Under the pieces are notes generated by a model, which saw only the letters and a program-made list of their open reading frames with translations, ran no database searches and was not told the origin of the DNA. 64,000 bases of DNA. Origin: Clostridia bacterium. Lineage in GTDB: Bacteria; Bacillota; Clostridia; Christensenellales; UBA1242. A program made the position numbers and the translations under genes. This document shows positions 4,471 through 34,644 of this stretch, piece by piece. Position 1 is the stretch's first letter, and every line of letters starts with the position of its first letter. The stretch spans positions 15,432 through 79,431 of the forward strand of contig JBNMHO010000004.1 of NCBI GenBank assembly GCA_050872785.1, written 5' to 3'.

Positions 4471-7400
4471 ATGAAAATTACTGTTGACGGAAACACCGCT
4501 TGTGCAAGAATGGCTTATGCTTTTTCGGAAATGGCGGTTATATATCCAATAACACCTTCATCACCAATGGCAGAGTCTTGTGATGAATGGCAAACAAAAG
4601 GCGAGAAAAATCTTTTTGGGGACACTGTAAAAGTTTCTCAAATGCAATCTGAAGCGGGTGTTGCGGGGGCTGTTCATGGGGCTTTGGCATGCGGGTCACT
4701 TGCCACAACTTTCACCGCAAGTCAAGGACTTTTGCTTATGATTCCTAATATGTATAAAATAGCGGGCGAATTGCTGCCTACTGTTTTTCATGTCACGGCA
4801 AGGGCTTTGTCCACCCATGCTTTGTCAATTTTTGGTGACCATGCTGACGTTATGGCTTGCAGACAAACGGGTTTTGCCATGATTTGTTCAAACACTGTTC
4901 AAGAAGCACAGGATATGGCAGTTGTGTCGCACATTGCAACACTGAAATCTCGTGTTCCTTTTTTGCACTTCTTTGACGGGTTTAGAACTTCACACGAAAT
5001 TCAAAAAATTGACGGCATTTCTTATGACGACCTAAAAAAGATTTTGCCACAAAAAGAAATCGAAAGTTTTAAACTTGGTGCAATGTCAAGTGTTTCACCT
5101 CATCAACAAGGCACTGCACAAAACCCAGATATTTACTTCCAAAACAGAGAGGCATGTGAAATTTTTTATAGGCAAGCACCAGAGGCTGTTTTGAGTGCTA
5201 TGAAAGACGTTGAAAAAATAACTGGAAGGCATTATTCCCTTTTTGAATATTTTGGCGACCCAAATGCAACAGATGTTGTTGTTCTTATGGGAAGTGGCGT
5301 TGAAACAATAAAAGAAACACAGAAATATCTGGCTCAAAATGGACGAAGCGGACTTGGTGTTTTGTGTGTTAGGCTGTATAGACCTTTTGTTTCTGCAAAG
5401 TTTGTGGAGGCTTTGCCTAAGACTGTAAAACGAATTGCCGTCCTTGATAGGACAAAAGAAAACGGCTCTGACGGTGAGCCATTGTATAAAGATGTGGCGT
5501 CCGCATTGTATGAATATGGCTGCAATGCAAAAGTCGTTCATGGCAGATATGGGCTTGGCGGAAAGGACTTCACTCCAGCCATGGCAAAAAGTGTTTTTGA
5601 CAATTTGCAAGGAGAAATGAAAAACGACTTTACAGTGGGAATTATAGACGATGTTTTAAATTCTTCCCTTCCATATGACAAGTCCTTCCACATTGGTGAC
5701 GACAACTACTCTTGCAAGTTCTTTGGGCTTGGAAGTGACGGCACAGTTAGTGCAAACAAAAACTCAATCAAAATCATCGGCTCGAACACAGACTTGTTTG
5801 CTCAAGGATATTTTGAATATGACTCCAAAAAATCTGGAAGTGCGACAATTTCTCACTTGCGTTTTGGCAAAAATCATACAAATCAGCCATATCTTGTTAC
5901 AAATGCAAATTTTGTTGCATGCCACAACATAAGTTTTGTTGGAAAATATGACATGGCAGACGACTTGAAGCAAAATGGAATATTCTTGCTCAATTCCCCA
6001 TATGGCACAGAAAACTTGGACAAAATTTTGCCACAAGAATTTTTTGAAACGCTAAAAGCCAAAAATGCAAAACTTTATGTTATAAATGCCAATGACGTGT
6101 CGGAAGAAGCGGGACTTGGCAAGCGAATAAATGTTGTTATGCAAGCATGCTTTTTCAAACTTACAGACATCATTCCATACAATGTTGTGGAAAATTTGCT
6201 TATTGACGCTTCTGCAAAAACTTATGCCAAAAAAGGTCAAGCGATTGTTGACGCAAACATTCGTGCAATAAAGAACGCAACGGCGAACTTGAAGGAATAT
6301 GACTTATCAAAATATGTCCCGCACAAAGGAGAATTGCCACATGAAAAAGACCTTGACGCATATGACAAGGACTTTATAAAAATAATTGAACACAAGCATG
6401 GTGATGACCTTCCAGTGTCAAAATTTTCGCCACGTGGATATGTGCCAACAAACACTTCCCGCTTTGAAAAGCGAGGCATTTCTATCACAAGCCCAAGGTG
6501 GATAAAGCAAAATTGTATTCAATGCAATATGTGTTCTGCCGTTTGCCCACACAGCGCAATAAGACCAGTTCTTGTGCCAGATGACAAGTTGTCCTCTGTC
6601 CCAGAAAATTTTGAAACGTTAAAAGCACTTGGCATAAATGGGTGCAATTTTAGAGTTCAAATTGATGTTGCAAACTGCACAGGTTGTGAAAACTGTGTTA
6701 AAGTTTGTCCAGCAAAAAATAAGGCACTTGAAATGGTGTCTAGTGTTGACCTTGAAGAAGCAGAAAGAGAAAATGTGGAATATGCCAGCAAGATTGAAAA
6801 CCCAAAGACCATTTTTAAAACAAATACCCTAAAAGGCAGTCAATTTGAAAAGCCATATTTTGAGTTTTCTGGTGCGTGTGCTGGCTGTGGTGAAACGCCT
6901 TACATTAAACTTGCAAGTCAACTTTTTGGCAAAAGAATGATAATTGCAAACGCAACTGGCTGCAGCAGCATCTACTCGGGCAGTGCTCCAACTTCCCCAT
7001 TTGCAAAGAACAATTTGGGACATGGCCCAGCGTGGGCAAGCAGTTTGTTTGAAGACAATGCAGAGTTTGGCTATGGCATGGCATTGGCAAAGAAAAATGC
7101 ACGAATTGCCCTAAAAAATGATGTTATAAAATATCTTCCAAGTTGCAAGAATGAAAAACTTGCAAGTCTTTTAAACACTTGGCTAGAAAACATTGATGAC
7201 GGCGAAAAAACTTATGAGTTATCAAATGAAATTTTATCCAGTGGGCTTTTAAAAGGCACTCCACTTGAAAAACATAAAAACTCTTTTGTAAAAGAAAGTG
7301 TGTGGATAATTGGTGGTGACGGCTGGGCATATGACATTGGCTTTGGTGGGCTGGATCAAGTTTTGGCTAGCGGCGAAAATGTTAATATACTGGTTCTTGA

Positions 7401-23615: not shown

Positions 23616-25028
23616 TCATTCCACGCAAACAAGTTTTTTAAGCCACAAATAAGTGTTCATGACGGTTGCATATTCCACCCTTTCGCCATGCAAGTTTTCA
23701 TCAAGGACTTTTGGAGAAATACAAACACATTCACACTTCTTAATTTTCTTTTGAAAAATGCCCAACTCGCTTGCAAAGTTTCCCTTCTCGAGTTTTACAT
23801 CTTCAAAGCCAACATAGTTTGCTTTAAGTGCTTTGACCAAAGAACATTCCTCATTTGCTTCAAAATGATTGATTGTGGAAACAACACTCAAACTGGCTTC
23901 AAACTTGTCTGACAAAGACTTAAGTTTATTTTCTTTTATGTCCAAGTCCTTCTTGTCACTCGACAACACTTGAAGCGAAAGTTCCCCCTTGTTTGGCTCA
24001 AAATCTAGCACACTTGCACCAACTTCTTGCTCTAAGTCATAAAGTTCAAAAACAAAGTTAATAAACTTTTCTGTATCCTCAAGCACCAAAAAATTATCTG
24101 CTTGTCTTGTGCAAACAATTTTAAGCCCAGCGTAATTATTCTTTTGCAAAATGTATTCGCCAAAAAGTTTGGCTTTGACCTTCAGTTCCTCGCAAAAGGT
24201 TGAAAATACACACTCAATTTTGTTTGCGTCAATGTAATTTATTGAGTTAATCATAAACTTATCTTTGCTCAAGAATTTTGCAAGCGAATATAGGGACGAA
24301 AAGCTCTCACTTCCGTCATCGACAATTTTTCTTTGCCAAAAGATGTTTCTCTTGATTTTTGGTTGGCAAGAGATTTTAAGTTTAAAAGTTTTGAAACCTG
24401 CGTCCTTGCTCATAAAAGCTTTATTCATGTTCAGTTTGCAAAAAACTAGCGAACTATCATAATTTGAGGTGAAAATTTTGTCATATTGTCCGCCGTCAAG
24501 CGAGATGAGATTTCTACAATTTATTTTTGAAATATCAAGCATTTTTGCCCCAACAAACTTGCCGTCATCTCGTGGGGTGAAAATAATTTTAAAAGGCACT
24601 TTTGCCCTATTTTCAATAAGATTTAATGCCATTGCAACTTTAGAGAGCGTTGCAAGGCGTGGAGTTGTGTCTTCAAGAACAAGATATTTGGAACTTGAAT
24701 CTATTGACTTCTGTGACAAACTTGATAGGCTCTTTTCGCCGAGATTTAGGACTGAATTTTGTCTGTGTTTTCGCCAGCCAGTGTTTTCAAAAACTTTTGT
24801 ATTAAGTCCACGTTCTAGTGAGCAAAGCGGAATAACTATTCCCACTTCGTCAAGGTCGTCTGCAGCAATGTCTTCCTTTTTTGGGCGACAAGTCACAATA
24901 CAGTTGTCAAATTGGTCTTGATAAACTTCATGCCCCAGCGACTTTGCCTTGCTAGACACGAAATCAACAAGCGAGTCGTTTGTTAGGTTGTGGATATTTA
25001 CAAGTTGTTCCAAAGTGGACAAAATCAT
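23616..25028 (-). CDS. Divergent M20C (aminoacyl-histidine dipeptidase PepD)-like protein, probably lacking part of the metal site
   Basis: The C-terminus ASELGIFQKK...ISPKVLDENLHGERV parallels PepD HAGLECGLFKK...GPTITGPHSPDERV. FKTFKLKIS parallels FETFKLTLKG. The HLDMV and GADNG motifs are not recognisable. ATG 25028 follows GGAGGG. Confidence 0.45.
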   Translation of the reverse strand: MILSTLEQLVNIHNLTNDSLVDFVSSKAKSLGHEVYQDQFDNCIVTCRPKKEDIAADDLDEVGIVIPLCSLERGLNTKVFENTGWRKHRQNSVLNLGEKSLSSLSQKSIDSSSKYLVLEDTTPRLATLSKVAMALNLIENRAKVPFKIIFTPRDDGKFVGAKMLDISKINCRNLISLDGGQYDKIFTSNYDSSLVFCKLNMNKAFMSKDAGFKTFKLKISCQPKIKRNIFWQRKIVDDGSESFSSLYSLAKFLSKDKFMINSINYIDANKIECVFSTFCEELKVKAKLFGEYILQKNNYAGLKIVCTRQADNFLVLEDTEKFINFVFELYDLEQEVGASVLDFEPNKGELSLQVLSSDKKDLDIKENKLKSLSDKFEASLSVVSTINHFEANEECSLVKALKANYVGFEDVKLEKGNFASELGIFQKKIKKCECVCISPKVLDENLHGERVEYATVMNTYLWLKKLVCVE

Positions 25029-25119
25029 AATTCCCTCCAAATTTTCTTCTATATATATTTTGCAACATTTTGCGTCAAAATGCTAATGATTTTGCATATT
25101 TTTTAAAAAAAATTCCAAC

Positions 25120-26035: not shown

Positions 26036-26120
26036 GTGGATATGGTGAAACTGGTAAACACGCTAGATTCAGGTTCTAGTGAGGCGACTCTTGCAGGTTC
26101 AAGTCCTGTTATCCACACCA
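26036..26120 (+). tRNA. tRNA-Leu (anticodon CAG), long variable arm, encoded CCA
   Basis: Acceptor GTGGATA/TATCCAC. Anticodon stem CTAGA/TCTAG with loop TTCAGGT. Variable arm GAGGCGACTC. T arm GCAGG-TTCAAGT-CCTGT. Discriminator A plus CCA. Confidence 0.9.
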
Positions 26121-26126
26121 CCCGTC

Positions 26127-26150
26127 AAAAAGCCCAATCGGGCTTTTTTT
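26127..26150. terminator. Perfect hairpin terminator after tRNA-Leu; also carries the left copy of the island direct repeat
   Basis: AAAGCCC-AATC-GGGCTTT flanked by an A-run and T7. Confidence 0.8.
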
Positions 26151-26177
26151 AAATTAAGTTTACGCTTTTGTTTATGA

Positions 26178-26519
26178 TTATAAAACAACCTCTCTGTTGA
26201 CAAATAAAGATATTATAAAACATATTATTGAATAATGAACAAATGTTAAACCAAAGCCAGCAAATATACCCGTAAAAAATCGCCTAATATTTGTTGACTC
26301 CATACCCAAAAATCTTTGAACAGTCCAATCAGCTGCCATTGGAATTAATAATAGCAAACACCACAATATTTTTATCTTTAGAAAAAATACTAACGGAATT
26401 GCAATAATTTCACCAACAAAAACACCAGTACACCTAGCACAAACTGGGAATTGGTAACCTCTGATAAAAAAACTTCTAGAATACATCTGATGACAACCTA
26501 AAAATCTCCCGATTTTCAT
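26178..26519 (-). CDS. DUF2085 family membrane protein
   Basis: GCHQMYSRSFFIRGYQFPVCARCTGVFVGE matches the DUF2085 signature (CHQ..RSF...G...P.CARCTG). Has 3-4 TM helices. I prefer the internal ATG 26519 over 26597, which overlaps the upstream gene by 50 nt. Confidence 0.7.
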   Translation of the reverse strand: MKIGRFLGCHQMYSRSFFIRGYQFPVCARCTGVFVGEIIAIPLVFFLKIKILWCLLLLIPMAADWTVQRFLGMESTNIRRFFTGIFAGFGLTFVHYSIICFIISLFVNREVVL

Positions 26520-26547
26520 AAAGAATAACCATGTTGTTATTTTCCTA

Positions 26548-26757
26548 TCACACTCTCCATTTGTTTCCACAGTTTTCACACACCCAATAATTTTCATTGT
26601 TTATCTGTCTTCCTTTCCCGCAAGCACCACATAGCAAACCTAAAGGACCGAATAATAAAGCTCCCAAACAACCTGTGCCAGCTTTATAATCTTTTCCTTC
26701 CGAAGATACTTCATTTATTATCTTACATTTATCACTATTACATTTTGGGCAATTCAC
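26548..26757 (-). CDS. Small zinc-ribbon membrane protein with LITAF-like architecture
   Basis: 69 aa: CPKC...C knuckle, hydrophobic GCLGALLFGPLGLLCGACG, then CENC knuckle. GTG start 6 nt after AAGGAG. Confidence 0.6.
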   Translation of the reverse strand: MNCPKCNSDKCKIINEVSSEGKDYKAGTGCLGALLFGPLGLLCGACGKGRQINNENYWVCENCGNKWRV

Positions 26758-26819
26758 ATTAAACTCCTTCCTAAACTTAATAAATTTGTTTGTTAATTTT
26801 ATTTCTTTAAGAATTATTA

Positions 26820-26869
26820 TACACTATTTTTAGTGTATGTCAAGTATTTTACACTAATTTCGGTGTAAA
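26820..26869. promoter_or_regulatory. Two operator-like palindromes in the divergent XRE / zinc-ribbon promoter region
   Basis: TACACTA-TTTT-TAGTGTA (26820-26837) and TTTACAC-TAATTTCG-GTGTAAA (26848-26869) share the half-site TACAC/GTGTA. Confidence 0.55.
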
Positions 26870-26877
26870 ATAAAAAT

Positions 26878-27087
26878 ATGAGAACTTTTGGACAAAATTT
26901 GAAAGAATTAAGGGTTTTAAGCGGGCTAAATCAAAAGCAATTCGCCACTCTCATGCGTACAACACAACAAAGAGTGAGTGAATGGGAAACAAACAAAATT
27001 GAGCCTTCTTTGTATAACATTCTAAAAATTTTAAAAGTTCTGAATGTCAGTTTTGACGAATTAACAGAAGGAATAAATGTTGAATAA
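26878..27087 (+). CDS. XRE-family helix-turn-helix transcriptional regulator
   Basis: 69 aa, NLKELRVLSGLNQKQFATLMRTTQQRVSEWE, typical of the Cro/CI HTH. Confidence 0.85.
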   Translation: MRTFGQNLKELRVLSGLNQKQFATLMRTTQQRVSEWETNKIEPSLYNILKILKVLNVSFDELTEGINVE

Positions 27088-27196
27088 TTGATAAAAAATT
27101 ATTCTTCCCTAGTAACGCTAACAAAAGCACACAGATTATATAAAACAAAAAAGCCCAAGGTTTAAAACATTTGAAACTAGTGTAATTTTATATCAA

Positions 27197-27233
27197 CAAA
27201 AAAAGAAGACGTTCAGAATATGTCTTCTTTTTT
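27197..27233. terminator. Bidirectional terminator between the XRE and DegV genes
   Basis: A7, AGAAGAC-GTTCAGAATAT-GTCTTCT, T5. Confidence 0.7.
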
Positions 27234-27270
27234 ACTATATATAACTTGCTATATTTTCACTTGCACTCTT

Positions 27271-28143
27271 TTATAGTTTCCCATTTTTATCAAAAATATG
27301 CTTTCCCCAAAATCCAACAATAACACCATTTTTTTCTGCATAATAACTGCAAAGCCCTCTTGTTGGCATAATTTTTATTTTTGCTTTATGCCAAATTTCT
27401 TGTATTTTTAATTTTAACTTTTCTGCAAAGTTTAAATTATGACAATGTGAAATAACAACCGAATGTGGATATATAACCCTTGTTTCAATATCTTCGACAA
27501 TTGTTTTAAGAGCTTGTTTTTCTCCTTTAACCTTTTTTATTACCTTTATAGTTCCCTCATCAGTGGCAATTCCGACACCCCATATACCTAATAGCTTAGC
27601 AAGTTTACCTATGAATTTAGACATTCTTCCAGCTTTAACTAAATTATCAAATGATGATAATGTAAATGTAATTCTGGATTCATTTAAAAATTCTTTTGCT
27701 AAACTTATAACTTCATCAAAATTTTTATTTTCTTTTATTAGTTCACATATTTTTTCAACCAACAAAACAATTTCTGGACCTGTGCTTTTAGAATCTATTA
27801 TCACAATATTTCTATCTGCATATTTGTTTAATATCATATTCTTAGCAATTGTTGCACTATTTAAACTACCAGATAAATTAGCTGAAATTGTAATTAAAAT
27901 GTAGTTTCCATCTTCTTCCATTTCTTTATACCAATCATAAGGTGATGGGCAAGCTGTTCCAACTTTATCTTTTGTTTGAGATATATCTTCCAATAAAAGC
28001 TTGGTATCTATATTTGGATTATCTATGATAGTTTTATTTCCAATATTAAAAGCAAAAGGAACGGTTGTGAATTTTATATTATCTTCTTGTATTTCAAAAT
28101 CATTCAAATCTGAACTACTATCAGTTATTATATGCCATTTCAT
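27271..28143 (-). CDS. DegV family (FakB-like) fatty-acid-binding protein
   Basis: 290 aa: MKWHIITDSSSDL, ACPSP, LITISANLSGSLNSA, IIDSKSTGPE. Typical DegV pattern. Confidence 0.88.
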   Translation of the reverse strand: MKWHIITDSSSDLNDFEIQEDNIKFTTVPFAFNIGNKTIIDNPNIDTKLLLEDISQTKDKVGTACPSPYDWYKEMEEDGNYILITISANLSGSLNSATIAKNMILNKYADRNIVIIDSKSTGPEIVLLVEKICELIKENKNFDEVISLAKEFLNESRITFTLSSFDNLVKAGRMSKFIGKLAKLLGIWGVGIATDEGTIKVIKKVKGEKQALKTIVEDIETRVIYPHSVVISHCHNLNFAEKLKLKIQEIWHKAKIKIMPTRGLCSYYAEKNGVIVGFWGKHIFDKNGKL

Positions 28144-28188
28144 ATTTTATTCTCCTTAATTATTCTTGACTATATAATGTTATTTTTA

Positions 28189-28204
28189 TATACTATATAG
28201 TATA
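28189..28204. promoter_or_regulatory. Perfect 16-bp palindrome (candidate TetR operator) between the DegV and TetR genes
   Basis: TATACTATATAGTATA is its own reverse complement. Confidence 0.5.
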
Positions 28205-28297
28205 CACAACCATAGTTGTCTAAGCAATAATATTTGCCACCTTATGTCCCACCAATATTTAAAAAGAGTTGGATAAACTAATAATAGGAGAAAAGAT

Positions 28298-28816
28298 ATG
28301 AATAAAAACGACCTAAGATTTCAAAAAACTGAACAAATTATTAAATCAACTTACAATGATTTAAAAAAGAAATCCTATACCTTAGTGAAAGTTAAAGATT
28401 TATGCGATAAGGCAATGATAAACAAAACAACATTTTATTCTCATTATGAAACAATGGATTTATTACATAAACAAGTTTGTTTGGATTTTATTTCTGATAT
28501 GATTAAACAATATAAACCAATAGAGAATATTCAAAGCAATATAAAAGATTTTATTTACTCGGTTTATGATTTATTTATGAAAAACCAAACAACAATAGCC
28601 AGATTATATGGAGAAGATACTTCATCACTAGTAAATGATGTTGAAAAAGTAATAATGGATTTGGGAATGTTTAAAGATATGGACGAAGATTTAGAACTTA
28701 TTACTCGTTTTTGTATAGGTGGAGCTTCAAGATTTTTAGTTTATGAAAAAAAAACAATAAGAATTAGTAAGATGATTCAATTGATTGAAAATATTTTTAA
28801 AAGTGGAAAATTATAA
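28298..28816 (+). CDS. TetR/AcrR family transcriptional regulator
   Basis: 172 aa with an N-terminal HTH (VKVKDLCDKAMINKTTFYSHYETMDLL). Confidence 0.85.
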   Translation: MNKNDLRFQKTEQIIKSTYNDLKKKSYTLVKVKDLCDKAMINKTTFYSHYETMDLLHKQVCLDFISDMIKQYKPIENIQSNIKDFIYSVYDLFMKNQTTIARLYGEDTSSLVNDVEKVIMDLGMFKDMDEDLELITRFCIGGASRFLVYEKKTIRISKMIQLIENIFKSGKL

Positions 28817-28829
28817 AATGGCAGTTAGG

Positions 28830-28887
28830 CGTGTGCTTGTCTTGATACAAGTCGGTGTCGCTTCGCTCCACCGAAGACAAGCACACG
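28830..28887. repeat. GC-rich two-level hairpin (14-bp outer stem)
   Basis: CGTGTGCTTGTCTT (28830-28843) pairs with AAGACAAGCACACG (28874-28887). Inner stem CGGTG (28853-57) pairs with CACCG (28869-73). Confidence 0.7.
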
Positions 28888-28925
28888 GACACAAAAACAA
28901 TTAAACAAAAAGGCATAGACAAACA

Positions 28926-28993
28926 TTGCCGAGTGAAAAAGAGGTTTGCGCGCAGGCTTTCCGCAAAACCTCTTTTTTTTTACCACTCGGCAA
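28926..28993 (+). terminator. Long composite palindrome containing a strong intrinsic terminator downstream of the TetR gene
   Basis: Outer arms TTGCCGAGTG (28926-35) and CACTCGGCAA (28984-93). Inner arms GAGGTTTGCG (28941-50) and CGCAAAACCTC (28962-72), followed by T9. Confidence 0.7.
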
Positions 28994-29200
28994 ATTGTAT
29001 TGTAATTTGTTCTCAAATTTCAATTTTGTTGTTTCAAAGACATTTTTCAAATACATACCTATGAGCAAAGTTAATGCTCTAGTTATTCCAAAATCATTAA
29101 AGTATATTTTCCTTACTCAATCTCCTTTACTCGCTTTTGGTGTCTTTTGTAGCATAGTTTTCCCCTAAGTCAAGGGAAATAAATATTGTTTTGTGCAATC

Positions 29201-29232
29201 TACTAGATTGAATATTCAGTCTAGTATTTTTT
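29201..29232 (+). terminator. Hairpin plus T-run upstream of the sigma-like gene (terminator-like; role unclear)
   Basis: TACTAGA-N12-TCTAGTA followed by T6. Confidence 0.4.
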
Positions 29233-29365
29233 ATTGCAAAAATATTTCAATACAATATTTCTTTCTTCTTCCTTGACTTCTTGTATTAGAAATTTAAAGG
29301 TTATGTTTTGTATCCAAACCATGCTCCAACGCCACTTGCCAAAAGGCGGATAAAGGAGAAAATAT

Positions 29366-29995
29366 ATGAACAAAAGAAAAAATGAAATATTAGAAGAAAA
29401 TGTTGTAATTAGTTTAGACAACATTGAAAAAATCTCAAAAGTAATTGCACTAGCAAGTCTAAGAAACTTCGTAAAGTATGCTTACTCTAACTCAAAAAGA
29501 ATTGAAACATTACACAAGCAATTACAAAAAGACATTTATCTTCATAACGAATTGGACACATATTCTGATGCTTACGATTTAGTCCAAGAAGCAAGTTTGT
29601 TCCTATTGAAATTTGTAGGTCAAAGACTTGGAGATACTTGCACATTTATTAAACCTACTGCAAAAGCTCCACAAACAATTTCAATTAGAATGGCTTGTTT
29701 TAAGACTCTTTCTGCATATCTTAGAAAAGAAATGAAGAATGGAAACTCAGAAAACGAAGAATTACTTGAATATATTCCAGCAAAAGATTGTTTTGAAGAA
29801 GAAAAACCAGATTATACAAAAGTTAACGAAATCATAAAGAAAATTGTAACTAACAAATTGGAAAGTCAAATTTTAGAGTATTACTACAATGGTGTTGAAG
29901 TAAAACTTATTGCCGAATTTTTAGGAGTTAGCACAGACATTGTTTACAAACGCAGAAGAAAATTTAAAGATAGATATTTAGCATATTGCATATAA
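29366..29995 (+). CDS. Sigma-70 family-like protein (regions 2 and 4 only), of the kind found on mobile elements
   Basis: 209 aa. AYDLVQEASLFLLKF resembles region 2. The C-terminal LESQILEYYYNGVEVKLIAEFLGVSTDIVYKRRRKF is a region-4 HTH. RBS AAAGGAG. Confidence 0.65.
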   Translation: MNKRKNEILEENVVISLDNIEKISKVIALASLRNFVKYAYSNSKRIETLHKQLQKDIYLHNELDTYSDAYDLVQEASLFLLKFVGQRLGDTCTFIKPTAKAPQTISIRMACFKTLSAYLRKEMKNGNSENEELLEYIPAKDCFEEEKPDYTKVNEIIKKIVTNKLESQILEYYYNGVEVKLIAEFLGVSTDIVYKRRRKFKDRYLAYCI

Positions 29996-30005
29996 CTTAA
30001 CAAAC

Positions 30006-30032
30006 AGAGTGTGTAAAAAGCACTCTTTTTTT
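30006..30032 (+). terminator. Rho-independent terminator after the sigma-like gene
   Basis: AGAGTG-TGTAAAAAG-CACTCT followed by T6. Confidence 0.7.
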
Positions 30033-30316
30033 GTTAAGGAATATCAAGTAATAACAAGTTTAGTTTGGGTAAATGCTAAGTAAAGTTGTTTTTTGTATAG
30101 GTAAAGTACAAGTTAAGTCATTACATTTTGTTAATAACTTGTGCTAAAGTAAAAACGGAAATAAAAAGACAACGCAAAAATGACTAAACCGAGAAGATAG
30201 TTTATTGGTTTGCTTTTAGCCAAAATTAAAAGCCAGTGGTTGCATTTTATGGGCGTAGAAAAGAAAACTTTTCTATGTCCTTTTTAATTCCAAATTTACA
30301 AAAAGGAGTTAAAAAT

Positions 30317-30451
30317 ATGCAAAAACTAAAAATTGAATTTGAAAACGAATTAGATTTAACACTTCTAGACAATGAATTTTTTGTTGCAATACTAAATCAA
30401 ATTATGTTGTTCAAAAAATGCGAGGTGCAATATGGACTATCCCAAAACTAA
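30317..30451 (+). CDS. Small hypothetical protein (44 aa) overlapping the rep start
   Basis: ATG 30317 follows AAAGGAG with 8-nt spacing. It overlaps rep by 20 nt, suggesting translational coupling. No recognisable motif. Confidence 0.4.
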   Translation: MQKLKIEFENELDLTLLDNEFFVAILNQIMLFKKCEVQYGLSQN

Positions 30452-31313
30452 AGTATATTTTGATGGTAGTCATTTTATTGGAATACCACCTGAAAAACAA
30501 ATATGGAAGAAACGAAAAAACACAAAAGCAAAACAAAAAGATGAAATACAAGAAAAAGTTAAGGAATTGTATAAGGAAGAAGCAGGAACAAAGAAAGAAA
30601 AAACTGAAAAAATTATTGAAAAATTAACTGAAGAAATTAAAGATGAAGAAAAAGCTAAAGAGATTGTTAAAGCAACTTTAGAAAAGGAAAAGAGAAATAA
30701 AATTGTTAGACTTACGAGATTGTATAGAAAAATTGGACTGCAACAATGGACACACTTTTGCACTTTTACTTACGATGGAAATAAACTAACCGAAGAAGAA
30801 TTTAGACAAAAATTACTTACTTGTTTAAGACATCTATCTCATAGAAAATGCTGGAAATATATTGGTGTGTTTGAGCGTAGCCCAAAACTAGAGAGATTAC
30901 ATTTTCATGGAATATTTGTAATTACTGAAATGGTTGGCGAGATTATTGAAACAAAAGATTACTCTACTAAAACACATCAAATGCAGATTACTCATCAAAA
31001 CACATTCTTTTTAGAGAGATTTGGGAGAAACGATTTTAAAGAAATAATCAACAATGTTGGTGTAAATGACGCAGTTAATTATATTATGAAATACATTCAC
31101 AAAACTGGAGAAAAAGTTATTTATTCTAAGCACTTACAAACATATTTTGTTACAGACATTTTAGACGATGATGTTGTTTGCAAAATTGGTCAAGAAGATA
31201 GAAAAATATTACTTTTCGACGATTTCAAATGTTTAGATTTTGAAACTGGCGAAATTTTAGGTCAACCTAACAAGGATAAATCTCTCATAGAAAAACTACC
31301 CAAAGCTTATTGA
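30432..31313 (+). CDS. rep: HUH-superfamily rolling-circle replication initiator (two-tyrosine, phiX174 gpA-like motif set)
   Basis: Motif I FCTFTY (aa 109-114), motif II HFH in LHFHGIF (aa 157-159), motif III YIMKYIHK (Y217/Y221; compare phiX174 YVAKYVNK). The first 100 aa are Lys/Glu-rich. RBS GAGGTG. Confidence 0.75.
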   Translation: MDYPKTKVYFDGSHFIGIPPEKQIWKKRKNTKAKQKDEIQEKVKELYKEEAGTKKEKTEKIIEKLTEEIKDEEKAKEIVKATLEKEKRNKIVRLTRLYRKIGLQQWTHFCTFTYDGNKLTEEEFRQKLLTCLRHLSHRKCWKYIGVFERSPKLERLHFHGIFVITEMVGEIIETKDYSTKTHQMQITHQNTFFLERFGRNDFKEIINNVGVNDAVNYIMKYIHKTGEKVIYSKHLQTYFVTDILDDDVVCKIGQEDRKILLFDDFKCLDFETGEILGQPNKDKSLIEKLPKAY

Positions 31314-31315
31314 TT

Positions 31316-31457
31316 GTCTTTCGGTTACAGAGCATAAACGAAAATTCTTTCTTGTCAAGGGTAAAATGTATTGATTCTCAACCCTTGACAAGAAAATTAA
31401 GACTTTAAGAATTAAGAAAACAATCCATTTTCGTTTCTTTTCGCTCTGTCGAAAGAC
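31316..31457. repeat. 142-bp nested imperfect palindrome between rep and the recombinase gene (candidate origin/nick-site structure)
   Basis: Four pairings: GTCTTTCG (31316-23) with CGAAAGAC (31450-57); CAGAGC (31328-33) with GCTCTG (31443-48); AAACGAAAA (31336-44) with TTTTCGTTT (31428-36); TTCTTGTCAAGGGT (31349-62) with ACCCTTGACAAGAA (31381-94). The central loop is 18 nt. Confidence 0.75.
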
Positions 31458-31492
31458 AAAAAATAAAACTTAATAAAAGGAGAAAAAACAAA

Positions 31493-32998
31493 GTGAAAAC
31501 AGCAGTAATATATGCAAGATATTCCAGCACTAACCAAACTGAGCAGTCTATCGAAGGTCAAGTTCATGTTTGCGAAGACTATGCTAAAAAACACGATATA
31601 ATTATTGTAGATTCATACATAGACCGAGCAATATCTGGAACAACAGACAACAGAGAATCTTTTCAAAAAATGCTTAAAGATAGCAACAATAAAAAATGGG
31701 ATTATGTTTTGGTATATAAGCTAGATAGGTTTGCAAGAAATAAGTTTGAGTCCGCAATTCATAGAAAGCATTTGAAGGATAACGGAATAAAACTTCTATC
31801 TGCTATGGAAAACATTCCAGAAACACCTGAAGGAGTATTACTTGAATCTTTGCTTGAAGGAATGAACCAATACTTCAGCGAAGAACTTGCTCAAAAAGTT
31901 AGTCGTGGACTTCACGAATCTCGAATGAAAGGACATATAATAGGCTCAGTTCCGTATGGTTACATCAAAGAGAATAAAATGTTAATAGTGAATGAAGAAG
32001 AAAAGCAAATTTTAACAAGAATGTTTGAAGATTATGCAAGTGGTAAAACGATATTACAAATTTCAAGAGATTTTGAAAAAGAAAATATTACTAATAAAGG
32101 TAGTAAATTCCTACCCCAAAATATACGAAGAATATTACAAAAAGAAGCATATACAGGTATTTGCAGAATTAACAACAAAATTTACGATAAAATCTATCCA
32201 CAAATAATTTCACAAGACTTATTTGAAAAAGTAAAAACAAAATTAGATGCAAATAAGTATGGTTGCAGAAAAGATAATCACGAGATTTTTAGACTTAAAG
32301 ACAAAATATATTGTGGTAATTGCAATCGCAAAATGTATCCAGTGTCTGCAATTTCTTCTAATGGTAATGCTATTAGATATTACAAATGTATAACCACAAA
32401 AAAGAAAAATTGTTTAACTGGAATAATAGAAAAGAACTATATTGAAAACATAATAGACAAATTCTTAATATCTCAGTTTAATATTCCAAAAAACTTAAAT
32501 GAAATTTCAGAAAAGATATTTGAAATACATAAAAAGAGAGTTGGAAATAATAACTCTCTCAACTCACTTAAAAATGATTTACAAAAAACTAACACTTCAA
32601 TTTCAAACATTATGTCTGCAATTGAAAAAGGAATACTTACCGACACCACAAAACAACGACTTGAAGAATTGGAACACCAAAAGAAAGACTTACAAGAAAA
32701 ACTAATAATAGAACAATCTAAACAGCAATTTGAACTCACAAAAGAAGATATACAAAACTACTTTAAATTTACAATGAAACAATGCCCAGATAGAGCCATT
32801 GAACTATTTATTCAAAAAGTTAATGTCTATGAGGATAAAATAGAAATATCTCTAAACTACTCACTAAATACAAACATCTCCAAAATCGAAACCACATCTA
32901 AAAAACTTTTCACCGAAACCTTTACATCGACTCGCAAATTCAAAGGCGGAACAATTAAAACAACAAACAAAGTCTATGAAGTTTATTTGGTAATTTAA
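31493..32998 (+). CDS. Large serine recombinase (resolvase catalytic domain, recombinase domain, zinc ribbon, coiled coil)
   Basis: AVIYARYSSTNQ (catalytic Ser region), YKLDRFARN, zinc ribbon CGNCNRKM...YYKCITTKKKNC, then a heptad-rich segment. GTG start after AAAGGAG. Confidence 0.9.
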   Translation: MKTAVIYARYSSTNQTEQSIEGQVHVCEDYAKKHDIIIVDSYIDRAISGTTDNRESFQKMLKDSNNKKWDYVLVYKLDRFARNKFESAIHRKHLKDNGIKLLSAMENIPETPEGVLLESLLEGMNQYFSEELAQKVSRGLHESRMKGHIIGSVPYGYIKENKMLIVNEEEKQILTRMFEDYASGKTILQISRDFEKENITNKGSKFLPQNIRRILQKEAYTGICRINNKIYDKIYPQIISQDLFEKVKTKLDANKYGCRKDNHEIFRLKDKIYCGNCNRKMYPVSAISSNGNAIRYYKCITTKKKNCLTGIIEKNYIENIIDKFLISQFNIPKNLNEISEKIFEIHKKRVGNNNSLNSLKNDLQKTNTSISNIMSAIEKGILTDTTKQRLEELEHQKKDLQEKLIIEQSKQQFELTKEDIQNYFKFTMKQCPDRAIELFIQKVNVYEDKIEISLNYSLNTNISKIETTSKKLFTETFTSTRKFKGGTIKTTNKVYEVYLVI

Positions 32999-33070
32999 AA
33001 ATATCCAACATTGTAACAAACAAAATATCTTATCAGCAAATATATATTCTCACAAAACATTCATAGAAAA

Positions 33071-33113
33071 AGAGCATACTCTAGGGAGACTCCTAAAATA
33101 TGCTCTTTATTTC
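33071..33113 (+). terminator. Hairpin after the recombinase gene (weak T-tract)
   Basis: AGAGCATA (33071-78) pairs with TATGCTCT (33099-106), with an inner GGAG/CTCC pairing, then TTTATTT. Confidence 0.45.
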
Positions 33114-33171
33114 TTAGAAAATACTGCTAGTTTCAAACAGCATTGACTAATCGGGCTTTTTTTTGTAGGTT

Positions 33172-34644
33172 TTATTTCATTAGTGGGAACAAGACAACAT
33201 CACGGACTGATTCTTGGTTGGTGAGGAGGCACATAAGTCTGTCCACGCCAAAGCCAAGTCCAGAGATTGGTGGCATGCCGTGTTCCATAGCATTTAGGAA
33301 GTCTTCGTCAAGTTCCATTGCTTCGTCATCGCCTTCTGTTCTTGCTTTTGCTTGTTCTTCAAGTGTTTGACGTTGAACTATTGGGTCAACGAGTTCTGAA
33401 TAAGCCTTGCAGATTTCGTCCCCGCAGACCAAAACTTGGAACAAGTCAATTCTTCTTGCATCTTCGTCATTTCTTCTTGCAAGAGGCACAAGGCATGCTG
33501 GATAGTTATAGAGGACTGTTGGTTGAATGATATTTTCCCTAATTTTTCTCTTATAAACAAGGTCAATAACTCCGCCAACTGTTTTGCAAGCGTCAAAGTC
33601 GTCCATTGAGAAAAGACCAGTTTTTACAATGTCTTCTTTAAGTTTTTGGGCATTTGTATATTCAAGAATATTAAGCCCCAAAATTTCGTTGACACGCTCT
33701 GTGTAGTTAATTCTTTCAAAGTCTTTTGAAAAGTCGAGAGTGTGTCCCTTAAATTCAATTTTCAAGTCTTCGTTGCAAATAGTTCTAATCGCTTCCCTAA
33801 TGAATTTTGTGAAGAATTTGATATTATCTTCAAAATTCCAGTAGGCAGCATACCATTCGACCATTGTAAATTCTTGCAAGTGGCTTGGGTCCATGCCCTC
33901 ATTTCTGAAGCATTTTGCCACTTCAAAAACTCTGTCGAACCCGCCAGCGATGACGTGTTTTAGATAGACTTCTGGTGCAATTCTGAGGTTACAGATTTTG
34001 TTTAGTGCGTTGTGTTTTGTAAAGAAAGGTTTTGCACTTGCTCCGCACACTGCACTTTGCAAAATAGGTGTTTCTACTTCCAAAAAGCCGTTTTCATTGA
34101 GAAAATTCCTGAGGAATGACAAAAATTTGCTACGTTTTAGGAAAACTTGTCTGCTTTCTTCGTTTGACACCAAGTCCATGCAACGTTCCCTATATCTTTG
34201 GTCTTGATTTGTAAGCCCATGGTGTTTTTCTGGAAGAGGCAAAATGGCTTTTGACAAGAGTTCATAGTCTGCAACACGCACAGTTTTTTCGCCTGTTTGG
34301 GTGGTGTAAAGTTCGCCCTCTATGCCAACAAAGTCGCCAATGTCAACCATTTTCTTGAAGAAAGTGTATTTGTCTTCGTCAATTTCATTACGACTGATAC
34401 TTGCTTGAAGTCTTGCTTCCACGTCTTCAAGTGCAAAAAAACTGAGTTTGCCCATAATGCGTCTGAAAGTCATTCTTCCGCAAACTCTAACTTTTGTGCC
34501 ATCTGGCAAAGATTTCGCTTCCACAAGTTTGTGAGTTCTTTCGAACTTCTCTGCGTAAACAATTTTGCCTTCTTCTTTAAGTTTTCTAACTTTTTCCTTT
34601 CTAATATCTACTTCGCTTGATAGATTTTGTATATTGTTGTCCAT
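33172..34644 (-). CDS. lysS: Lysyl-tRNA synthetase, class II
   Basis: 490 aa: OB-fold N-terminal domain, FLEVETPIL, FRNEG, GLGFGVDRL. Confidence 0.96.
   Translation of the reverse strand: MDNNIQNLSSEVDIRKEKVRKLKEEGKIVYAEKFERTHKLVEAKSLPDGTKVRVCGRMTFRRIMGKLSFFALEDVEARLQASISRNEIDEDKYTFFKKMVDIGDFVGIEGELYTTQTGEKTVRVADYELLSKAILPLPEKHHGLTNQDQRYRERCMDLVSNEESRQVFLKRSKFLSFLRNFLNENGFLEVETPILQSAVCGASAKPFFTKHNALNKICNLRIAPEVYLKHVIAGGFDRVFEVAKCFRNEGMDPSHLQEFTMVEWYAAYWNFEDNIKFFTKFIREAIRTICNEDLKIEFKGHTLDFSKDFERINYTERVNEILGLNILEYTNAQKLKEDIVKTGLFSMDDFDACKTVGGVIDLVYKRKIRENIIQPTVLYNYPACLVPLARRNDEDARRIDLFQVLVCGDEICKAYSELVDPIVQRQTLEEQAKARTEGDDEAMELDEDFLNAMEHGMPPISGLGFGVDRLMCLLTNQESVRDVVLFPLMK

Follow-up and report, generated by a model that had tools for sequence, protein, structure and literature searches.

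A serine-recombinase element in the loop of a transcription terminator between tRNA-Leu and lysS, accompanied by a second foreign segment

In a Clostridia bacterium, about 7 kb of DNA lies between the genes for tRNA-Leu(CAG) (26036-26120, plus strand) and lysS (33172-34644, minus strand), which raises the question of whether this DNA is one mobile element or several. An initial annotation of the 64-kb stretch analysed here (the window) had described a single 7.0-kb element at 26151-33163, ending in a 15-nt direct repeat within which a serine integrase would have made its crossover. We find instead that the 7-kb stretch is a foreign insertion composed of two pieces: a 996-bp segment, S (26151-27146), and an element of 5,992 bp, E, carrying a large serine recombinase (LSR) and seated in the loop of a second terminator copy. 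A model in which E, as a serine-integrase element in a terminator loop, and S are separate is in our judgement probably the right one.

Results

The host side of the locus is as initially described, with a tRNA gene (ARAGORN; Rfam RF00005, 57 bits) followed by a hairpin (RNA fold) on the left and, on the right, a lysS with tRNA-synt_2 and OB-fold domains. The claim that the interval is AT-rich is borne out by the computed GC content, 28.8% in the island against 37.8% in the rest of the window, where no 7-kb window falls below 35.9%. The predicted empty site exists, with a few SNPs relative to the prediction, in the conspecific Christensenella sp. UBA7862 (L001), which is 96.4-96.9% identical in nucleotide sequence over 10 kb of either flank and 99.6% identical in the LysS protein. 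Position 26155 there abuts 33171, leaving a single terminator between the two genes, and both S and E are missing. L003 is likewise empty, and where the site is empty (L001, L002 and L003) the spacer has as its sole element the same hairpin as at 26127-26150. The view that the tRNA-Leu/lysS terminator is an occupied site, holding foreign DNA with a large serine recombinase behind most of it, is thus supported. The source assembly probably derives from a metagenome, and short matches rich in A/T are frequent, which might suggest an artefact, or repeats and hairpins that are chance features of AT-rich DNA; yet three further assemblies (L122-L124), which appear to be of the same strain as the window source, contain 26106-28859 and the flanks, including the internal junctions, at 100% identity, and with the repeat and T-run statistics given below this explanation is scarcely credible.

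The repeat itself was correctly recognised. Two copies of the 15-mer AATCGGGCTTTTTTT and no more are present in the window, at 26136-26150 and at 33149-33163, and none of 100 dinucleotide-preserving shuffles had even one. The right copy ends 8 nt from the lysS stop codon, and of the hairpin just the 3' half is found there. The 15-mer occurs twice because the whole terminator is present twice. One copy, T (26127-26150; A5-GCCC-AATC-GGGC-T7), is intact and bidirectional, and its hairpin AAAAAGCCC-AATC-GGGCTTTTTTT folds with -11.7 kcal/mol (z -3.8). The other, T', is split by E into a left half, B (27147-27156; A6-GCCC), and a right half, B' (33151-33164; TC-GGGC-T8), which belongs to the right 15-mer copy and is host sequence as in the empty sites. 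Joined through an AA dinucleotide the two halves rebuild a hairpin, AAAAAAGCCC-AA-TCGGGCTTTTTTTT, of -13.2 kcal/mol (z -3.9). The 15-nt direct repeat is thus the loop and 3' half of a 24-nt terminator, twice over. Since both halves of the site at 26136 are of host type, it is attB-like and therefore not an attL.

The boundaries of E were located by comparison with relatives whose integrases are 72-96% identical. Their homology stops exactly after ...GACT|AA at 33149-33150, and the same stop after ...ACT|AA is seen across relatives with 17 distinct right junctions (TT in L128), which places the right crossover dinucleotide (the attR core) at this AA. Directly before it lies the P arm, CTAGTTTCAAACAGCATTGACT (33127-33148, plus strand), kept in all relatives up to the core. 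Its inverted repeat (I8), the P' arm GGTTTAAAACATTTGAAACTAG (27159-27180, plus strand), follows a second AA at 27157-27158 (the attL core), where a host-type half-site meets the arm; the P' arm also adjoins the left junction in L087, L089, L090, L125 and L135. In both arms the motif TTTGAAACTAG stands at a distance of 11 nt from the core, and in the five elements with an AA core 16-19 of 30 positions agree between P and P'. From these sequences the attP of E would be dyad-symmetric, CTAGTTTCAAA-N11-AA-N11-TTTGAAACTAG. With the right crossover at 33149-33150 and the core of its partner arm at 27157-27158, E therefore spans 27157-33148, counting one core. In L087, 95 nt of extra DNA separate the host half-site (B|AA) from the P' arm (AA|P'), so left ends can exceed this simple model in complexity; the left ends of L083 and L093 were looked for and not located. 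Among the available contigs we found neither a circular (attP) junction of E nor an E-free T-S-T' allele.

These boundaries bear directly on the reading of the stretch as one element. In its favour, the 15-mer is exact and confined to its two places, removal of 26151-33163 recreates an empty site of the L001 type, and S and E, comparably rich in AT, invariably occur together in the available contigs. However, comparison with 17 related insertions sets the right crossover at the first two bases of the 15-mer, and the left partner arm lies 1 kb inside the supposed element, where a complete P' arm is preceded by a host-type half-terminator (27147-27180). The site at 26127-26150 has no P-type arm on either side, the related elements have nothing in common with 26151-28803, and five other elements have end repeats of just 2 nt. 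The 15-mer as the ends of a single element and the container of its crossover is not supported, and we regard this reading as very unlikely.

Within E, the P' arm is followed by a terminator, cargo that varies among relatives, and a backbone whose homology begins at 28804-28819 in 10 relatives. The cargo comprises a DegV family (fatty-acid-binding) protein (27271-28143, minus strand; PF02645, E 6e-48; TIGR00762) and, tentatively, a divergent 172-aa TetR-like regulator (28298-28816, plus strand). The latter has no Pfam match at 0.01, and is placed by its partner position: DegV homologues of 64-67% identity adjoin a TetR_C_8 gene as ordinary chromosomal pairs, and in L146 and L147 the equivalent divergent partner carries this domain. 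At the left edge of the backbone stands a GC-rich nested hairpin (28819-28890, plus strand; paired stem 28830-28887) with a DNA fold of -20.7 kcal/mol (z -4.4), a candidate origin of replication or transfer. Next come a conserved backbone protein, orf209 (29366-29995, plus strand), with a weak sigma-70/ECF-like similarity (TIGR02937, E 4.6e-4, below cutoff), and a conserved 44-aa ORF (30317-30451, plus strand) that starts at an internal ATG of ORF 30236-30451 and overlaps the start of the following gene. Window positions 29121-29995 align in L081, L083, L087 and L093; L081, L083 and L125 have a gene of 207-208 aa between cargo and Rep, and L081, L083, L125 and L127 have gene calls of 36-44 aa at the position of the short ORF. 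The following gene (30432-31313, plus strand) encodes an HUH protein, either a rolling-circle Rep or a relaxase of the Rep type (PF23343, 39.8 bits where the cutoff is 27.8), whose motifs FCTFTYD, RLHFHGIF and Y217-x2-K-Y221 are invariant in five homologues. The right-most gene, as initially annotated, encodes a large serine recombinase (31493-32998, plus strand; 501 aa) with Resolvase, Recombinase and Zn_ribbon_recom domains (PF00239, PF07508, PF13408), an N-terminal YARYSS motif and a match to the PHROG 95 integrases (E 7.5e-95); 5,336 of 8,000 candidates scored were relatives of it. E is an integrative element, probably mobilizable or capable of rolling-circle replication.

Each end of E contains a bidirectional terminator of its own, at 27199-27233 (-14.8 kcal/mol, z -5.6) and, 41-80 nt inside the right end, at 33069-33108 (plus-strand fold -16.5 kcal/mol, z -4.6). 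The right-hand stem also forms on the minus strand and is conserved in relatives; it can stop both the transcript of the integrase gene and read-in from lysS. The initial statement that lysS is left without a complete terminator is therefore literally true of the original hairpin, but E supplies a strong replacement. The same arrangement, a terminator just inside both arms, is found in all six fully bounded elements, each with an analogue of the left-end hairpin, although the sequences of these are unrelated.

The sites that E and its relatives occupy are terminators too. In six independent elements (the window's, L089, L090, L125, L135 and L128) the flanks rebuild an A-run, a hairpin and a T-run, with the core dinucleotide in the loop and folds of -13 to -18 kcal/mol (z -3.9 to -6.8). 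Every one of the 17 distinct right junctions has a T-run, 4 nt or longer in all and 5 nt or longer in 15, compared with 8.2% of random AA sites in the same loci (binomial P = 5e-15), T being nearly invariant at +10 to +15. Six different targets hold integrases at least 90% identical to that of the window; the inner 9-nt segments of attB vary among targets. On these comparisons the integrase family appears to insert into terminator hairpin loops in many different genomes, and the recombinase may recognise either the A/T tracts or the hairpin (or cruciform), or else the two together. As the target is a hairpin and E encodes an HUH protein with intact motifs together with a conserved hairpin, one could also speculate that the Rep performs the insertion on single-stranded hairpin DNA, in the manner of IS200/IS605- or IS91-type elements. 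The ends, however, consist of arms with dyad symmetry about a 2-nt core that is identical at both, the hallmark of serine integrases, and L135 and L137, which lack Rep and orf209, have junctions built in the same way within a terminator loop, as does the fossil copy L089, making insertion by the Rep highly improbable.

There remains S, which has the intact terminator copy T on one side and the split copy T' on the other. Its GC content of 30.2% is lower than that of every 1-kb window elsewhere in the 64 kb and close to the 28.5% of E. It carries 9-nt terminal inverted repeats (I13; GCTTTTGTT at 26164-26172 and AACAAAAGC at 27120-27128) and encodes a DUF2085 membrane protein (26178-26597, minus strand; PF09858, E 2e-28), whose closest homologues, identical copies aside, reach no more than 61% identity, a 69-aa Zn-ribbon protein (26548-26757, minus strand; an ORF matching PHROG zinc-finger and unknown-function families) and an Xre-type HTH_3 regulator (26878-27087, plus strand; PF01381, E 1.6e-15). 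The Zn-ribbon and DUF2085 pair recurs in the viral contigs L140-L142 at 49-65% identity. We favour the view that S is what remains of an earlier site-specific insertion, or a satellite of one, with this terminator as the attachment core, that is, tandem accretion. Against this, S has been seen solely together with E, in contigs of the same strain, and this constant co-occurrence and the similar low GC would fit a joint arrival, with S carried in by E on a single molecule as flanking DNA from an earlier site, through aberrant excision or a cointegrate. S is flanked precisely by core dinucleotides, the AA inside T and the AA before the P' arm, the extra 95 nt in L087 occupy the corresponding place, and the DegV/TetR-like cargo has the look of an ordinary pair of chromosomal genes, so that the E family does pick up chromosomal DNA. 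Such a course nevertheless requires a non-canonical reaction between an attR-like site and attB, and the halves of the donor terminator (TCGGGCT7 and A6GCCC) must equal those of the host, while the stems of other targets show no sequence preference that would favour such a match; no canonical serine-recombinase reaction explains the origin of S unless donor and host terminators were the same. We consider carriage by E unlikely, albeit the most serious of the alternatives.

Discussion

The recombinase of E can be set beside several known systems. Similarity between attB and attP can give rise to flanking direct repeats of more than 2 nt, and in this, as in being LSRs that move a small cargo island without phage or conjugation genes, the Ccr enzymes of SCCmec offer a likeness. 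Ccr enzymes, however, use a single target site in rlmH (orfX), and although CcrB is the best NCBIfam match of the window recombinase, its 108 bits lie far below the cutoff of 900, so that the enzyme is not a member of the SCCmec Ccr group. TnpX and TndX use a GA core. The present family resembles these two enzymes (of Tn4451 and Tn5397) and the multi-targeting LSRs such as Cp36 (Durrant et al. 2022, PMC10083194) in that enzymes at least 90% identical occur in many target contexts and the 2-nt core is fixed. The targets described by Durrant et al. have a TT core and are rich in T/A at their ends, possibly the signature seen here on the opposite strand, and the word "terminator" has no occurrences in their paper; the window recombinase lacks DUF4368, the domain that marks most of their clade. 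What differs is that the targets here are demonstrably terminator hairpins and that the element carries replacement terminators.

With the Firmicutes IMEs that combine a serine integrase and an RC-Rep relaxase (Coluzzi 2017, PMC5357655; Guédon 2017, PMC5704250), E shares small size (6-11.5 kb), variable cargo and the pairing of an integrase with an HUH Rep-like protein, without genes for a conjugation pore. They have also been described in tandem with decayed elements accreted at one site. Unlike E, they are mostly directed to specific genes, for example the 3' ends of rpsI, rpmG and rplL. At the level of Pfam the Rep differs as well, being PF23343 here as against PF01719, PF02486, PHA00330 (which has no Pfam equivalent) and PF02407.

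The course of events that we propose would begin with S, as an older insertion at the terminator, and E would have entered the right-hand copy later. The recombinase would join the attP of E to attB in a conservative reaction whose 2-nt exchange takes place at AA, attB being the loop of an intrinsic terminator that works in both directions. Among bacterial group II introns, those of class C also home to positions set by intrinsic terminator stem-loops, but they are retroelements in which RNA or protein recognises the DNA hairpin without a recombinase; the mechanism is unrelated and the analogy lies in the target alone, terminators being neutral and ubiquitous landing sites. For the family of E, attB would be degenerate, an A-tract, about 9 nt, AA, about 9 nt and a T-tract, a form that terminators fit, so that close relatives occupy many different terminators. 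Because E brings a replacement bidirectional terminator at each end, the flanking genes would keep their termination and the element would itself be insulated.

The insertion between tRNA-Leu and lysS

The sequence features from which the initial annotation had argued were all found in the window: the tRNA-Leu gene, a hairpin, two copies of a 15-mer, a low GC content and a large serine recombinase (LSR). On the 3' side of tRNA-Leu(CAG), at 26036-26120, lies CAAAAAGCCC-AATC-GGGCTTTTTTT (26127-26150), a terminator hairpin folding at -11.7 kcal/mol (z -3.8); since a simple terminator scanner overlooks its 4-bp GC stem, folding energies were used. Exactly two copies of the 15-mer AATCGGGCTTTTTTT lie in the window, one at 26136 and the other at 33149, where it ends 8 nt from the lysS stop; the 15-mer was absent from 100 of 100 dinucleotide-preserving shuffles. 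The proposed shift towards AT holds when computed, with 28.8% GC in the interval against 37.8% in the remaining window, and no other 7-kb window falls below 35.9%.

Exact-sequence look-ups with the LysS and integrase of the window returned no matches. A LysS scan with one genome per species led us to a contig of Christensenella sp. UBA7862 (L001), which has 96.4-96.9% nucleotide identity to the window over 10 kb on each side. The predicted empty site is present in this conspecific genome: window position 26155 abuts 33171 directly, and the spacer, ...CCCATCAAAAAAGCCCAAACGGGCTTTTTTATACATTTATTTCATTAG, holds a single bidirectional terminator. A second relative (L003, LysS 95% identical) is likewise empty. 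The host belongs to the Christensenellales. The 7.0 kb is a real insertion, absent from the conspecific genome.

A third relative, L002 (LysS 98.8% identical), carries the same terminator followed by an unrelated AT-rich insert of about 150 nt before lysS (L002:1818-2213, corresponding to window 26150/33164), in which a stretch of about 21 nt is duplicated and the motif from the 3' end of lysS appears a second time. Kinship of this insert with either part of the 7.0 kb was rejected, as alignment scores were at shuffle level. The tRNA-Leu/lysS spacer appears to be a hot spot of rearrangement. Elsewhere in the window, a 474-aa ORF upstream of rpmF/yceD (23616-25040) has diverged far more than its neighbours among close relatives, with identities of 95.6% (LysS 99.6%) in L001, 78% (LysS 95%) in L003 and 53-57% (LysS 90%) in L004 and L005.

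The recombinase and the ends of its element

The rightmost gene of the interval encodes a recombinase of 501 aa with matches to PF00239 (E 1e-28), PF07508 (1.5e-15) and PF13408 (6e-7) and a YARYSS motif at residues 8-13; it agrees with the LSR pattern of an N-terminal resolvase catalytic domain with a serine nucleophile, then a recombinase and a zinc-ribbon domain, in about 450-700 aa. Its relatives number in the thousands (about 5,000), and contigs were fetched for those 68-96% identical. At the right end, these relatives are conserved through ...CTAGTTTCAAACAGCATTGACT and the AA that follows it, with total divergence beyond; in the window this AA, with which the 15-mer begins, is at 33149-33150. 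BLAST of the left end of the window interval (26136-26200) against the relatives gave noise only, and the true arm was therefore sought further inside, as an inverted repeat of the right arm. It was located at 27147-27180, which reads AAAAAAGCCC-AA-GGTTTAAAACATTTGAAACTAG, the motif TTTGAAACTAG lying 11 nt from the AA and mirroring the right arm exactly.

Together, the inverted arm and the right end at AA define an element, E, of 5,992 bp (27157-33148), with a dyad-symmetric attP and a 2-nt AA crossover, which matches what a serine integrase requires. The attP layout is CTAGTTTCAAA-N11-AA-N11-TTTGAAACTAG, and the five AA-core elements are symmetric at 16-19 of 30 positions; across the joined ends (33148, AA, 27159) the sequence would read ...CATTGACT AA GGTTTAAAAC... 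The site conforms to a serine-integrase attP of about 50 bp with imperfect dyad symmetry, and attL and attR share the 2-bp core alone, AA at both junctions (TT in L128). Judged by its sequence, the enzyme fits every testable defining feature of an LSR, its catalysis being predicted. No attP (circle) junction was present in any fetched contig, and no directionality factor, which excision needs, was identified.

The initial annotation had read the direct repeat as marking the two ends of what the integrase moves. The left end of the integrase unit is at 27157-27158, not 26136, and the left copy of the repeat falls within an intact, attB-like terminator. As a pair of ends, the repeat may apply to the adjacent segment S (26151-27146) and an absent recombinase. 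The flanks of the relatives hold no long direct repeats, the sole 12-nt AT-rich match (in L083) being regarded as chance; a search of the 10-kb flanks of L083 and L093 did not locate their left ends. In independent assemblies, contig ends in L124 (corresponding to window 26106-28859) and L086 fall in tRNA-Leu just upstream of the terminator, in a conserved GC hairpin, or 1 base after the AA core, a pattern of assembly breaks to be expected if the samples hold several variants or insertion states of E.

Terminator loops as integration targets

In the window, A6-GCCC to the left of E and TC-GGGC-T8 to its right rebuild the hairpin found after tRNA-Leu. This second, split terminator copy (T', with halves at 27147-27156 and 33151-33164) reads ...AAAAAAGCCC AA TCGGGCTTTTTTTT... 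when rejoined, with S to its left and lysS to its right. Five further independent, two-ended elements (L089, L090, L125, L135/L137 and L128) also rebuild terminators, with the order A-run, stem, loop, stem and T-run, folding at -13 to -18 kcal/mol (z -3.9 to -6.8) with the core dinucleotide in the loop. The stems of these rebuilt targets are unrelated in sequence among elements. Integration is thus conservative in that the flanks of six elements restore an intact attB as an uninterrupted terminator hairpin, the actual empty site of the window being known only for S and E together.

The signature is also seen when right junctions are compared. Of 17 distinct ones, all 17 have a run of 4 or more T within 20 nt and 15 have one of 5 or more, compared with 8.2% of random AA sites from these loci (P = 5e-15). 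Positions +10 to +15 are almost always T, and A is found at the left mirror positions. The window, L081, L087, L089, L093 and L098, whose integrases are 90-96% identical, have six different right flanks, so that a cluster of at least 90% identity uses more than three unrelated targets, which is how multi-targeting is defined. In the L128 lineage (integrase 72% identical) the core is TT where others have AA.

DUF4368 is present in 63% of the multi-targeting clade of Durrant et al. 2022 (PMC10083194); the window recombinase differs in lacking it (no Pfam match at E 0.01), though it is multi-targeting by their behavioural definition. One multi-targeting enzyme described by the same authors (PMC10083194) has a TT core flanked by T/A-rich sequence, and this target may carry the same signature as the terminator attB; the word "terminator" has 0 occurrences in their paper.

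Terminators carried by the element

Each of the six bounded elements has a strong A-run, hairpin and T-run just inside both arms, within a few tens of nucleotides; those of E are at 27199-27233 and 33069-33108, inside its left and right ends. The terminators at the cargo end are unrelated in sequence between elements, so it is their function that is conserved, not their sequence. This means that transcription from lysS, whose own hairpin is lost, would run into a strong terminator some 80 nt inside E; the upstream gene on the other side of E would be served likewise.

Cargo, Rep and backbone

A GC-rich nested hairpin marks the point, about 28819 (28804-28819), from which the window is homologous to 10 relatives. 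Upstream of this point the genes differ: a DpnII-type restriction-modification system and unknown genes in L083, Type I restriction-modification systems in L127/L128 and L135/L137, ankyrin-repeat proteins in L125, and DegV and a TetR-like gene in the window. The position is therefore the border of a variable cargo bay and not an element end. The window cargo was evidently picked up from a chromosome, since its 64-67% identical homologues are ordinary chromosomal neighbours in other Clostridia; DegV was also sought in another copy of E, and the closest DegV proteins (64-67%) were again ordinary chromosomal genes.

The Rep protein carries the HUH signatures FCTFTYD (motif I), RLHFHGIF (motif II) and Y-x2-K-Y (motif III; Y217, K220 and Y221), invariant in five homologues, and scores above the gathering threshold of PF23343. 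A 44-aa ORF overlaps the start of Rep, in relatives too, and orf209 is weakly sigma-70-like. Beside the integrase and the HUH Rep, the ORFs of E are thus DegV, the TetR-like gene, orf209 and the 44-aa ORF; profile searches found no conjugation, capsid, type IV secretion or coupling genes among them. By the genetic definition, E qualifies as an integrative mobilizable element (IME) with a predicted Rep-type relaxase, and it shares its gene content with streptococcal IMEs (Coluzzi et al. 2017, PMC5357655; Guédon et al. 2017, PMC5704250). An IME also excises to a circle and transfers from an oriT through the conjugation pore of a helper; in E, the conserved hairpin at 28830-28887 is a candidate origin.

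An alternative is that E is an integrating rolling-circle replicon. The junction architecture is kept in L135/L137, which have no Rep, and in a fossil with a truncated integrase (L089), which argues that insertion is the work of the recombinase and not of Rep. Neither the integrase nor Rep had relatives in IMG/VR viral contigs, and Rep had no match among PLSDB plasmids; its one match, at 52%, was in an unannotated gut phage record.

The fossil (L089:9524-11554) has orf209, Rep and the first 35 integrase codons deleted, with both att halves intact in a perfect terminator. L135:4083-11761 and L137 (integrase 74% identical) carry a MazE-like gene and Type I restriction-modification beside int and have neither Rep nor orf209, so the integrase module travels without the Rep module. 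In L128:44-11586 (also L127 and L129-L132) a TT-core element sits in the serS terminator, with Type I restriction-modification and a tyrosine recombinase (a shufflon-like hsdS arrangement) as cargo. The backbone also has conserved non-coding parts (28819-29365 and 29996-30431) with several strong hairpins, such as 29201-29226 and 30251-30280; a search of these against Rfam gave only a sub-threshold caiA hit at 30251-30280 (30.7 bits against a cutoff of 55.5), on a terminator-like hairpin.

Origin of segment S

Three proteins are encoded in S (26151-27146): one of the DUF2085 family, one with a Zn-ribbon and an Xre-type HTH protein. The segment lies between the intact terminator (T, 26127-26150) and the split T'; the two copies are identical over the A-run, hairpin and T-run only (24 nt). 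Its GC content of 30.2% is below that of every other 1-kb window. L001 lacks S, which is without close relatives, the nearest DUF2085 homologues being at most 61% identical, and a search for S without E returned only three same-strain contigs, all with E. Contigs of 100% identity come from the samples SRR30769980, SRR30769984 and SRR30769985. An adjacent Zn-ribbon/DUF2085 pair (49-65% and 45-47% identical) is seen among large phage-like ORFs in three IMG/VR viral contigs (L140-L142, at about 5780-6390).

Routes to S by the serine recombinase only (aberrant excision, a small-circle cointegrate or a composite E-S-E) were set aside as primary explanations, as each needs a donor terminator identical to that of the host, and no such preference for a sequence is evident in the stems of the other targets. 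The most economical account is a tandem accretion of S and then E: the terminator would have served as att core for an older element, of which S would be a remnant or satellite, and so have become duplicated, and E would later have landed in the right-hand copy. Joint arrival of S and E is a less likely but live alternative, with one relative as a point in its favour: in L087 (5845-5980; integrase 92% identical), 95 nt of unrelated AT-rich DNA separate the host half-site, ACTAGCT followed by AA (5857), from the AA and left arm P' of the element (5954). Extra DNA is here seen at a left junction for the second time, and the L087 terminator is not duplicated.

Implications

The earlier reading of the locus as an occupied site with a serine recombinase stands, while it was wrong on the boundaries of the element and on the meaning of the 15-mer. 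For annotation, the lesson is that a direct repeat beside an integrase need not be the att core; here the ends are 1 kb off and have 2 nt in common.

Targeting of terminators by serine recombinases was not described in the literature searched, and neither was the combination found here: a terminator-loop attB used across many terminators among close relatives, with compensating terminators at both element ends. Serine integrases are usually thought to read one long, unique attB, whereas this family appears to read a generic signal, abundant in every bacterial genome, and to repair the damage with its own terminators. On balance, we lean towards the view that the family evolved to use intrinsic terminators as attB (A-tract, hairpin and T-tract, with crossover in the loop), its elements compensating with a bidirectional terminator at each end, as a generic "safe-harbour" strategy for almost any bacterial genome. 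In a more radical form of this idea, the enzyme may recognise the shape of the DNA, or an extruded cruciform, in place of the base sequence. The compact attP/attB pair, with an attB of approximately A6-N9-AA-N9-T6, is a possible host-independent landing system. Terminator targeting would also explain how small cargo elements spread over many genomes without gene disruption.
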